Shown piece by piece: positions 3,901 to 63,616 of a stretch of 64,000 nucleotides of DNA. Every line of letters begins with the position of its first letter. Within the stretch, counting starts at the first letter, position 1. A model generated the notes under the pieces. It saw nothing but the letters and a program-made list of their open reading frames with translations. It searched no databases and was not told where the DNA came from. This DNA is from Eledone cirrhosa. Its lineage: Eukaryota. The position numbers and the translations under genes were made by a program. The stretch spans positions 5,394,001 through 5,458,000 of the forward strand of contig OZ024763.1 of assembly GCA_964016885.1 (NCBI GenBank), written 5' to 3'.

Positions 3901-6900
3901 CGTTGAGTGCTTCTAATCTGCTGTAAGTTAACTTTGTTGAATAATCAATAAACCAAATAACTCATTGTTTATATATATATACCCATGCTAGTGTGGAAGA
4001 TAGACGTTAAACGATGATGATGATATATGTTCAATCATAGGGGATTTAAAATCGCCAGTTTGAGGAACATATGTTGTCCACACTGGTGGCTTTAAGTTCT
4101 TCCCACTGGCAGTTTTAAATCTCCTATGATTGAACAAATATTTCTATGTGTTCTCTCTATATGCTGATTTATATAGAGCCTGGGGTCTGTTCCTTGAGCT
4201 CATAAAATCATGGGGGATGATTGTGGATGACTCCACTTTGTAATTTGATATATATATATATATATATATATAGTAATAATAATAAATTTGAAGACTAAAT
4301 TACAAAGAGGGCTCGATAAGGATAAATATATATCAAATATATAAGAACCGTAGAGCAAATATTTATTAAAATAACAGATTAAAGTTTAAGCAAAGAATCG
4401 CTGCTTTCACCCTTAACGGGATCTTCTGAAACTCAGAAGATCCTGAGTTTCAGAAGATCCCGTTAAGGGTGAAAGCAGCGATTCTTTGCTTAAACTTTAA
4501 TCTGTTATTTTAATAAATATATATATATATATATATATATATATATATATATATATATATATATCATCATCGTTTAACATCCATCTTCCATGCTAGCATG
4601 GGTTATATTTTTTTGTTCCATTTGATGTGGGAATGGTCGAGAGCCCATGTCTTACTCACATGGAAGTGTTTCTGGCAGGTTTTTTTTACAGCTGGATGTC
4701 CTTCCTAACACCAGCCACATTTACAGTGTGGACTGGGAGCCTTTTCCCCCCCCCCCTGTGTCTCCTACACAGCCACCTTACAGTGTAGACTGTTATATCC
4801 TCTACACAGTGGACACAAATGGGAGGATGGGGTAGGATGTGAGGGTACATTGGATTAAGAGGTGCCTCCTGACTGTAGGTTTGCATGCAATGGTAGTCGG
4901 GTCTTCTGTAGAACTGCATGGCACCAATGTATTAATGTATTCTATGTGTGCCTTCCCTATGTGTAAGTCTCTCTCTCTCTCTGTCTCCCTCCAGTATCTA
5001 CGGTGTCCGGGAAGAAGATCAAGGCAGATATATGTGTGTTGCTACCAATAAAGTTGGCTCCACGCGTGGCTATGTCAACCTCAGGGTTGCCTGTAAGTTA
5101 TCTCTTTATTCTGTCACCCTGTCTGTCACCCTGTCTGTCTCTCTGTCTCTATGTCCGTCTGTGTTGATTGTGTGTGTGTGCATGTACATATGTGTGTGTG
5201 TGTATATGTATATATATATATATATATATATATATATACACACACACATATATATATATATACATATATATATATACATATATATATATATATATATATA
5301 TATATATATATATATACATATATATATATATATATATATATATATATATACATATATATATACATATATATATATATATATATATATACATATATATACA
5401 TATATATACATATATATACATATATACATATATATACATATATATATATATATATAAATATATACATATATATACATATATATACATATATATATATATA
5501 TATATGGTAGATTTATCTACATATATACATATATATACATATATATATATACATATATATACATATATATATATACATATATATACATATATATATATAT
5601 ACATATATATATATATATATATATATATATATATATATACATATATATACATATATATATATATACATATATATACATATATATACATATATATATATAT
5701 ACATATATATACATATATATACATATATATATATATACATATATATACATATATATATATATACATATATATATATATATATATATACATATATATACAT
5801 ATATATATATATACATATATATACATATATATACATATATATACATATATATATATATACATATATATATATATATATATATATATATATATATATATAT
5901 ATATTAATAAATTGAAACTATATTTATAAAACCATATTTATTTTATTATACATATTTCAAGGGCCACCAAGGCAAATTATGGTGCACTTTCATCAGATAA
6001 AATAGATTTGTTTTATAAATAAATATTGACATACCCGGAAAAAAAGACAACCTTAACGGTTGGAGCTTCCTGTTTATAAAACAAATCTGTATTTTATCTG
6101 ATGAAAGCACACCATAATTTTCCTTGGTGGCCCTTGAAATATGTATAATAAAATAAATATGGTTTTATAAATAGTTTCCATTTATTAATATATTGTATAT
6201 TTACTCCACTAAACTGTTGAGTGCTTTATATCAGTTATAAAAATGTTTAAGCTTGTTGAATCCCAACAAATTAAATATAACCTCTGCATCATCATCATCA
6301 TCATCATCATCGTTTAACGTCCATCTTCCACACTTGCATGGGTTTGGACGGGAGTTTTCCCACTTGAGGCAAGATTGGTTGTCCTGCTCGTATAAGACTG
6401 TCTGGCGGGTTTTCTATGGCTGGATGCCCTTCCTAACACCAACCACATTTACAGTGTGGATTGGGAGGTTTTTACCGTGCTACCTACACTGCATATATAT
6501 ATATAAAGAAAAAAGGATGAAATCGAAAATGCAACTGGAGTCTTATTTTAAAAAAAATATATATATTTATTTGGTTCCTTTACTGGTTTCGCAGTTCTTC
6601 TGCTTTTTCAAAAGTAGAGTTGAGATGGAGGGTCTGTGGTTTTTCTCCCTCCATCTCAACTCTACTTTTGAAAAGCAGAAGAACTGCGTAACCGGTAAAG
6701 GAACCAAATAAATATCTATATATTTTTTTAAATAAGACTCCAGTATATATATATATATATACATATATATATATTTAAAGGTTAAACAAGGTTCAATGAA
6801 TAAATCAAAGAATTAGTTTTACAATTAGTACTACCATAACTGGATCTTAACCATCTACTATGTCAGGGTATGTCATGCATCATCTTGTTTTATCTGATGA

Positions 6901-63616: not shown

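Follow-up and report, generated by a model that had tools for sequence, protein, structure and literature searches.

Hammerhead-type motifs with a U3-A8 core in pseudo-LTR repeats of Neptune-like Penelope-like elements of Eledone cirrhosa, with a proposed single origin of the core swap

The window analysed here, a 64,000-nt stretch of the 3.0-Gb, (TA)n-rich genome of Eledone cirrhosa, likely carries, at five of the six sites listed in a first-pass annotation, a self-cutting RNA motif with a U-A core swap of a kind already in print. The account that we favour, at a probability of about 0.7, draws on the sequence, copy counts, linkage to frames for reverse transcriptase and endonuclease (RT-EN) and an RT tree. 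The motifs would belong to pseudo-LTR fragments of Neptune-like Penelope-like elements (PLEs). A single change of the core pair, from C3-G8 to U3-A8, would have occurred in an ancestor shared by the families found at 61907, 6577, 54482 and 33557, after which the U3-A8 hammerhead would have been copied thousands of times in pseudo-LTR fragments. Cutting is predicted to require a dimer, in which two copies of the motif are joined by a palindromic stem III, and is probably weak and aided by protein; activity is expected in the families of the 61907 and 10733 sites, and weakness in that of 33557. Cutting seems nonessential for spread, this last family having been amplified about 6,000-fold despite an A13C core change and a predicted hairpin that hides the core.

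All six strings were located by inspection of the sequence, and five of the sites are short repeats bearing a hammerhead-type motif of the type I minimal form with a palindromic stem III, as judged from the predicted fold. That of family A at 61907..61944 (minus strand), recognized from its sequence and from genome copy counts, is a complete type I fold with 4 bp in each of stems I and II, the GAAA box, a 6-nt palindrome and a UA site; U3 lies at 61940, A8 at 61935 and G12 at 61920, and the predicted cut falls after A17 at 61911. It stands in a truncated family A pseudo-LTR fragment beside (TA)n, with approximate ends at 61878..61983 (minus) and 97-100% matches elsewhere. Subfamily A' is represented by an inverted head-to-head pair at 6577..6701, on both strands of an element at about 6493-6744, with U3 at 6611 (minus) and 6668 (plus) and a stem I of 3 bp. 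Each member of the pair has private damage: the core of the minus copy contains one A too many and its palindrome is broken, and the plus copy carries A13U. A further decayed A'-type copy at 29996..30086 (plus; U3 at 30039) was absent from the first list. The family C motif at 10729..10777 (minus; U3 at 10770) is a decayed copy of an older family; directly adjoining it, at 10800-10900 (plus), is a tRNA-like repeat head, likely of a SINE. Family D occurs at 54480..54521 (minus; U3 at 54514), inside an inverted insertion at about 54308-54801, and in its motif (54482-54516) stem II has a U10.1.U11.1 mismatch at its base, and stem I has no more than 2 pairs in a row. Family E occurs at 33557..33593 (plus; U3 at 33560, C13 at 33582), and a mirror copy missing from the first list, at 33455..33491 (minus; U3 at 33488), forms the other arm of a palindromic insertion at about 33265-33756. 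The hammerhead-like fold originally proposed for all six sites thus holds for five; the sixth string, at 35683..35722 (minus; site 35680-35725), was not accepted as a family member, for it has a stem II and a palindrome but 0 stem I pairs, its sole candidate in a genome search was itself, and it had no relative in the fetched loci.

Taken by itself, the loose string TTGANAA..GAAA occurs near chance level, 14 times in the window against a shuffle mean of 8.35 and a shuffle maximum of 14, and the evidence for the motifs is their recurrence at the family level. Among 150 of 743 matches listed for the Rfam covariance models there was no hammerhead; nearly all were hits of the microRNA type that fell on simple repeats. 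The window also contains about a dozen canonical type I hammerheads with C3-G8, which belong to four other families (5947-6147, 6894, 18854-19681, 25635, 48971-49191 and 60250-60298), several of them as inverted pairs. Other repeats in the window include a tandem array with a 48-base period at 40451-42560 and, at 57197-57295, a near-perfect hairpin of about 100 nt, part of which recurs in other loci.

The pairing of core positions 3 and 8 was counted both by copy and by family. An exact 34-mer of family A, with positions 3 and 8 left free, gave 6,254 exact genome matches and its reversed control none. The cores comprised 6,229 U3A8, 9 C3A8, 2 U3G8 and no C3G8 copies; position 3 was not U in 17 copies (9 C, 5 G, 3 A), all with A8, and U3 stood with another base at position 8 in 8 copies (3 C, 3 U, 2 G). 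In 8,996 contigs aligned to family A, neither U3 and A8 nor any of the remaining conserved positions of the core had a variant that reached 2%. C3A8 is therefore nowhere near as common as U3A8, the outcome that was to count against the original proposal, yet the test is a weak one, since these copies all derive clonally from a single source, and young copies decaying neutrally show 0.1-0.3% mismatch per site with selection or without it. Whether a ribozyme core is under selection cannot be shown by tallying repeat copies; the tally has to be of lineages, and the family is the better unit. With a strict hammerhead descriptor, 973,800 bases gave only 11 hits and known families went undetected, and the descriptor was relaxed; the sample for the relaxed form was 1,173,800 bases, made up of 111 evenly spaced or flanking 10-kb stretches and the window. 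It yielded 87 hits, which included 10 recurrent clusters, eight with C3G8 (52 copies), two with U3A8 (19 copies, one cluster joining A, A' and E) and none mismatched, while singletons stood at the shuffle level (16 against about 18 per shuffle pass). Since all ten recurrent families have paired cores, the 3-8 pair has been kept in the source lineages, likely by selection on the source elements. The Watson-Crick covariation claimed for positions 3 and 8 is thus borne out by both counts, mismatched cores being rare in each. A core of the form N3-U4-G5-A6-N7-N8-A9 with U3-A8 paired was found in families A, A', C, D and E, and the elements G12-A13-A14-A15.1 and U16.1-H17 in A, A', C and D. Outside the window another U3-A8 family, J, has an 8-nt palindrome and a weak stem I (L279:5538 (plus), L080, L246, L261).

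The coding sequences associated with these motifs point to PLEs. Family A motif copies a few kb apart enclose a 770-aa frame in locus L023 with RVT_1 and GIY-YIG domains above the Pfam cut-offs; locus L024 has a pseudo-LTR-ORF-pseudo-LTR layout with both hammerheads in sense, and the motif also flanks RT and GIY-YIG frames in L026, as it does in L023 and L024. For family E, L181 has the same layout and L185 an RT-EN frame of 784 aa that is intact, and the family D motif lies 3' of RT-EN pieces in many copies, directly so in several (e.g. L187). An RT with a C-terminal GIY-YIG domain between pseudo-LTRs carrying a sense-strand hammerhead is thus found for A (L023, L024), E (L181, L185) and D (L187). 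Judged from these sequences, the families at 61907/6577, 54482 and 33557 sit in pseudo-LTRs of PLEs that we call Neptune-like by their motifs (a CX2-5CxxC linker, the C-terminal endonuclease, (TA)n targets and inverted copies) rather than by a tree of named references. A non-LTR retrozyme, which consists of head-to-tail noncoding tandem units each with a hammerhead, was considered and set aside, the copies of A, D and E seen being solo, inverted or flanking coding frames. Family D is young (97-98% identity, 1,537 candidates). For family C no family-linked RT was found in 37 loci, the strong hits there coming from D or LINE-type copies nearby. The 29 best relatives of the 10733 site match it at 87-92% identity, one 35-mer has only 4 exact copies, and the relatives mostly combine a 7-bp stem I, a 5-bp stem II and an 8-nt palindrome.

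Two further features of these elements may be recorded. Families E and A carry a second open frame upstream, of about 455 codons in E, that overlaps the one for RT-EN, the latter being read in the -1 frame relative to it (L181:4707-6071 and 2812-4773, minus; L182; L026:1809-2333 and 2246-4324, plus); a Pfam search of one such A/E upstream frame gave no match, and a frameshift or splicing is possible. Family H, which is Neptune-like (633 candidates; 3' ends in L223-L247), has CTGAAGA after the frame, but in the copies inspected no GAAA box follows, an arrangement that would suit a lost or rearranged hammerhead.

The predicted strength of the fold differs widely among the families. Contiguous stem I pairs number 7 in C, 4 in A, 3 in A' and E, 2 in D and none at the 35680 site; stem II has 4-5 bp of a sequence that differs between families, and the stem III palindromes span 6-8 nt. 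Folding predictions retain the double-hammerhead helices in the best dimer of family C and of the C3G8 family G, and place the active dimer above the best fold by 3.2 kcal/mol in A, 8.8 in A' and 15.8 in D. With a weak stem I of 2-4 pairs and such high-energy active dimers, much of the A/A'/D/E clade may be inactive. Copy 5' ends within 6 nt of the predicted cut are nearly absent from the targeted, overlapping loci (A 0/69, E 1/27, D 1/58, G 1/43); in A, E and G the ends cluster upstream of that cut, at a distance of about 60-85 nt that is partly biased by the query. Hammerhead mutants do not block insertion of the PLE PAc in vitro (PMC11167929), and together with the 5' ends lying away from the cut site this argues against a needed role for cutting. 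The same observations could be carried further, to the proposal that the whole U3-A8 clade has lost catalysis and that the fold is kept for dimerisation via the palindrome, RT binding or template switching, with U3 held in part by a hairpin with an upstream UCAA. The weak stems I agree with such a loss, as do the predicted hairpin that sequesters U3-A6 in A (0.33-0.43), A' (0.46-0.55) and E (0.90-0.99) and the reported spread of Naiads without canonical hammerheads (PMC8557442). Against it, every conserved core position is intact in A, A' and D even though the RT of A is only 55-57% identical to those of D and E, the family C fold is strong and canonical, family D is free of the U3-pairing hairpin, and its U10.1.U11.1 state is described among tolerated natural ones (PMC3088659). 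We regard a clade-wide loss as rather unlikely, and prefer the reading in which weak dimer cutting persists in part of the lineage.

The number of times that U3-A8 arose is best addressed through the RT. RT-EN identity is 55-57% between A and D or E, 74-78% between D and E, and 42-50% to G and H, the hammerhead of G being C3-G8. In a tree from a de novo alignment of 10 rows, those for D, G, H and A' being assembled from frameshifted copies, A, A', D and E fall on one side of a branch with support 100/99, against family G and family H, and groupings of G with A or with D+E are rejected (p-AU below 1e-80); in a first, query-anchored tree of 18 rows the support for the clade was only 78. Since A, A', D and E form one clade, four of the six listed sites count as one swap event. 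Families C and J, for which no RT is in hand, could represent further origins or the same one. The first-pass annotation had read the paired change as arising independently in several families under selection for catalysis, so that all would carry active ribozymes. The rarity of mismatched cores would agree with that reading, as would the distinct stems II and III of C and J, which could mark separate origins, and the occurrence of the same swap in the Cercyon elements of Schistosoma mansoni (PMC4209133). It is not supported by the placing of A, A', D and E in one RT clade of clonal copies, whose mismatch rate is in any case that expected of young neutral copies either way; moreover, E has A13C throughout, and changes at A13 are reported to cut hammerhead activity 10-100-fold (PMC4075628, citing earlier work). 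Independent origins with activity in every family are thus unlikely, and a single swap followed by amplification is the better reading of the clade. Continued selection within the A lineage is favoured by the invariant core in the 8,996 contigs together with stem I position 4, where one old copy of the A lineage (L255) has a full A-U pair, A' has A.G and young A has C-G, a series that fits stepwise repair. The old copy (L255:2222, plus) has a 7-bp stem I and a U.U closing pair as in D and G, and is possibly close to the ancestral U3-A8 form.

Family E is a likely case of spread with little or no cutting. An exact 35-mer with position 13 left free gave 5,992 exact genome matches, so that the family is about as abundant as A (6,254), and among the first 100 of these 98 had C at position 13, one A and one G. 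The GCAA at 33557, previously described as a mutated GAAA, is indeed present, but as the state of the family and not as a change in that copy. Family E is a descendant of the hammerhead motif in which G12-A13-A14-A15.1 is no longer found and the core is not canonical. Older E subfamilies, at 84-86% identity, also have C13 (L104/L276 and L084), and a 221-nt contig under a second organism label spans the motif with no difference there; since the sister family D has A13, the change arose on the branch of E. Stem I has 3 bp, and folding predictions have the core paired to an upstream arm with a probability of 0.90-0.99 and put the active dimer 15.6 kcal/mol above the best fold. GCAA in 98 of the first 100 copies, taken with an intact RT-EN frame, points to a family that likely spreads with a weak or dead ribozyme rather than the decay of one copy, and on the predicted folds E likely represents such a ribozyme in an element that kept spreading. 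The abundance of E with A13C throughout argues against uniform selection for catalysis. That the A13C core is instead a natural variant that still cuts, with A8 or the element's protein accommodating it, is very improbable: C13 is common to at least two older E subfamilies and the contig under the second label, the other core positions, stem II and palindrome are retained, and no substitution at 5% or more falls in the 37-nt motif compared with 14 such sites in about 254 flanking nt, yet this contrast is not significant (about P 0.12 by hand), stem I is short, the core is predicted to be hidden and A13 changes are inhibitory in standard hammerheads (PMC4075628, citing earlier work). Rescue of E in trans by family A, raised by their shared palindrome, was set aside, the stem I arms giving only 2 pairs by inspection. 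Many inverted pairs of the E motif among the matches listed start exactly 107 bases apart, which suggests a fixed template switch or a palindromic source copy.

A stronger form of this reading, which we hold only tentatively and at less than even odds, is that the U3-A8 lineage would form a natural series from a working to a broken ribozyme, in which E would be autonomous and recently very active (about 6,000 identical copies, intact RT-EN frame) and yet unable to cut, with the core still in place in its sister D and cousin A. If true, it would provide evidence from within a genome that hammerhead cleavage is dispensable for PLE retrotransposition, the fold persisting for another role. The young sister families with and without A13C offer a matched comparison for the question of PLE hammerhead function.

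The swap itself adds a further example to a published result. Natural U3-A8 core variants have been in print since 2011 (Perreault et al., PMC3088659), and about 1,300 hits were obtained with a dedicated descriptor for U3-A8 hammerheads in S. mansoni PLEs (Cervera and De la Pena 2014, PMC4209133). The premise that compensatory swaps of the 3-8 pair retain partial activity depends on context, as a pairwise scan of a type III hammerhead found no rescue of the pair by any change but G3-C8 (PMC9901934). A full-text literature search, covering main texts, found no A13C hammerhead, though the supplements of the 2011 and 2014 papers may list such variants, and a search on cephalopod Penelope hammerheads gave nothing relevant.

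Several known systems share features with the families described here. The Poseidon element PAc of Anolis (Frangieh et al. 2024, PMC11167929) likewise has a pseudo-LTR hammerhead and insertion ends that do not match the cut site, but is C3-G8 with demonstrated protein-assisted cleavage, whereas here cleavage is only predicted. The Neptune-clade EN+ PLEs (Craig et al. 2021, PMC8557442) resemble our elements in the RT with C-terminal GIY-YIG, the CX2-5CxxC linker, the (TA)n targets, the inverted 5'-truncated copies and the hammerheads in pseudo-LTRs; the elements here differ in an extra upstream frame overlapping RT-EN, the likeness to the clade being one of motifs. The natural U3-A8 variants of 2011 (PMC3088659) show the same covariation and a tolerated U10.1-U11.1 mismatch as in family D, while the A13C of family E is not named in that paper's section on natural variants. 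Among the closest counterparts are the Cercyon PLEs of S. mansoni, whose minimal hammerheads are reported to have low activity in vitro and to act as dimers joined at the palindrome (PMC4209133). They too are type I motifs in pseudo-LTRs with U3-A8, a short stem I, palindromic positions 15.2-16.2, mostly solo or inverted copies and a dimer model. In contrast to Cercyon, the motifs of E. cirrhosa belong to a Neptune-like lineage, have a stem II of 4-5 bp, mostly without a bulge after A9, and occur in single families of about 6,000 identical copies, one of which is fixed for A13C.
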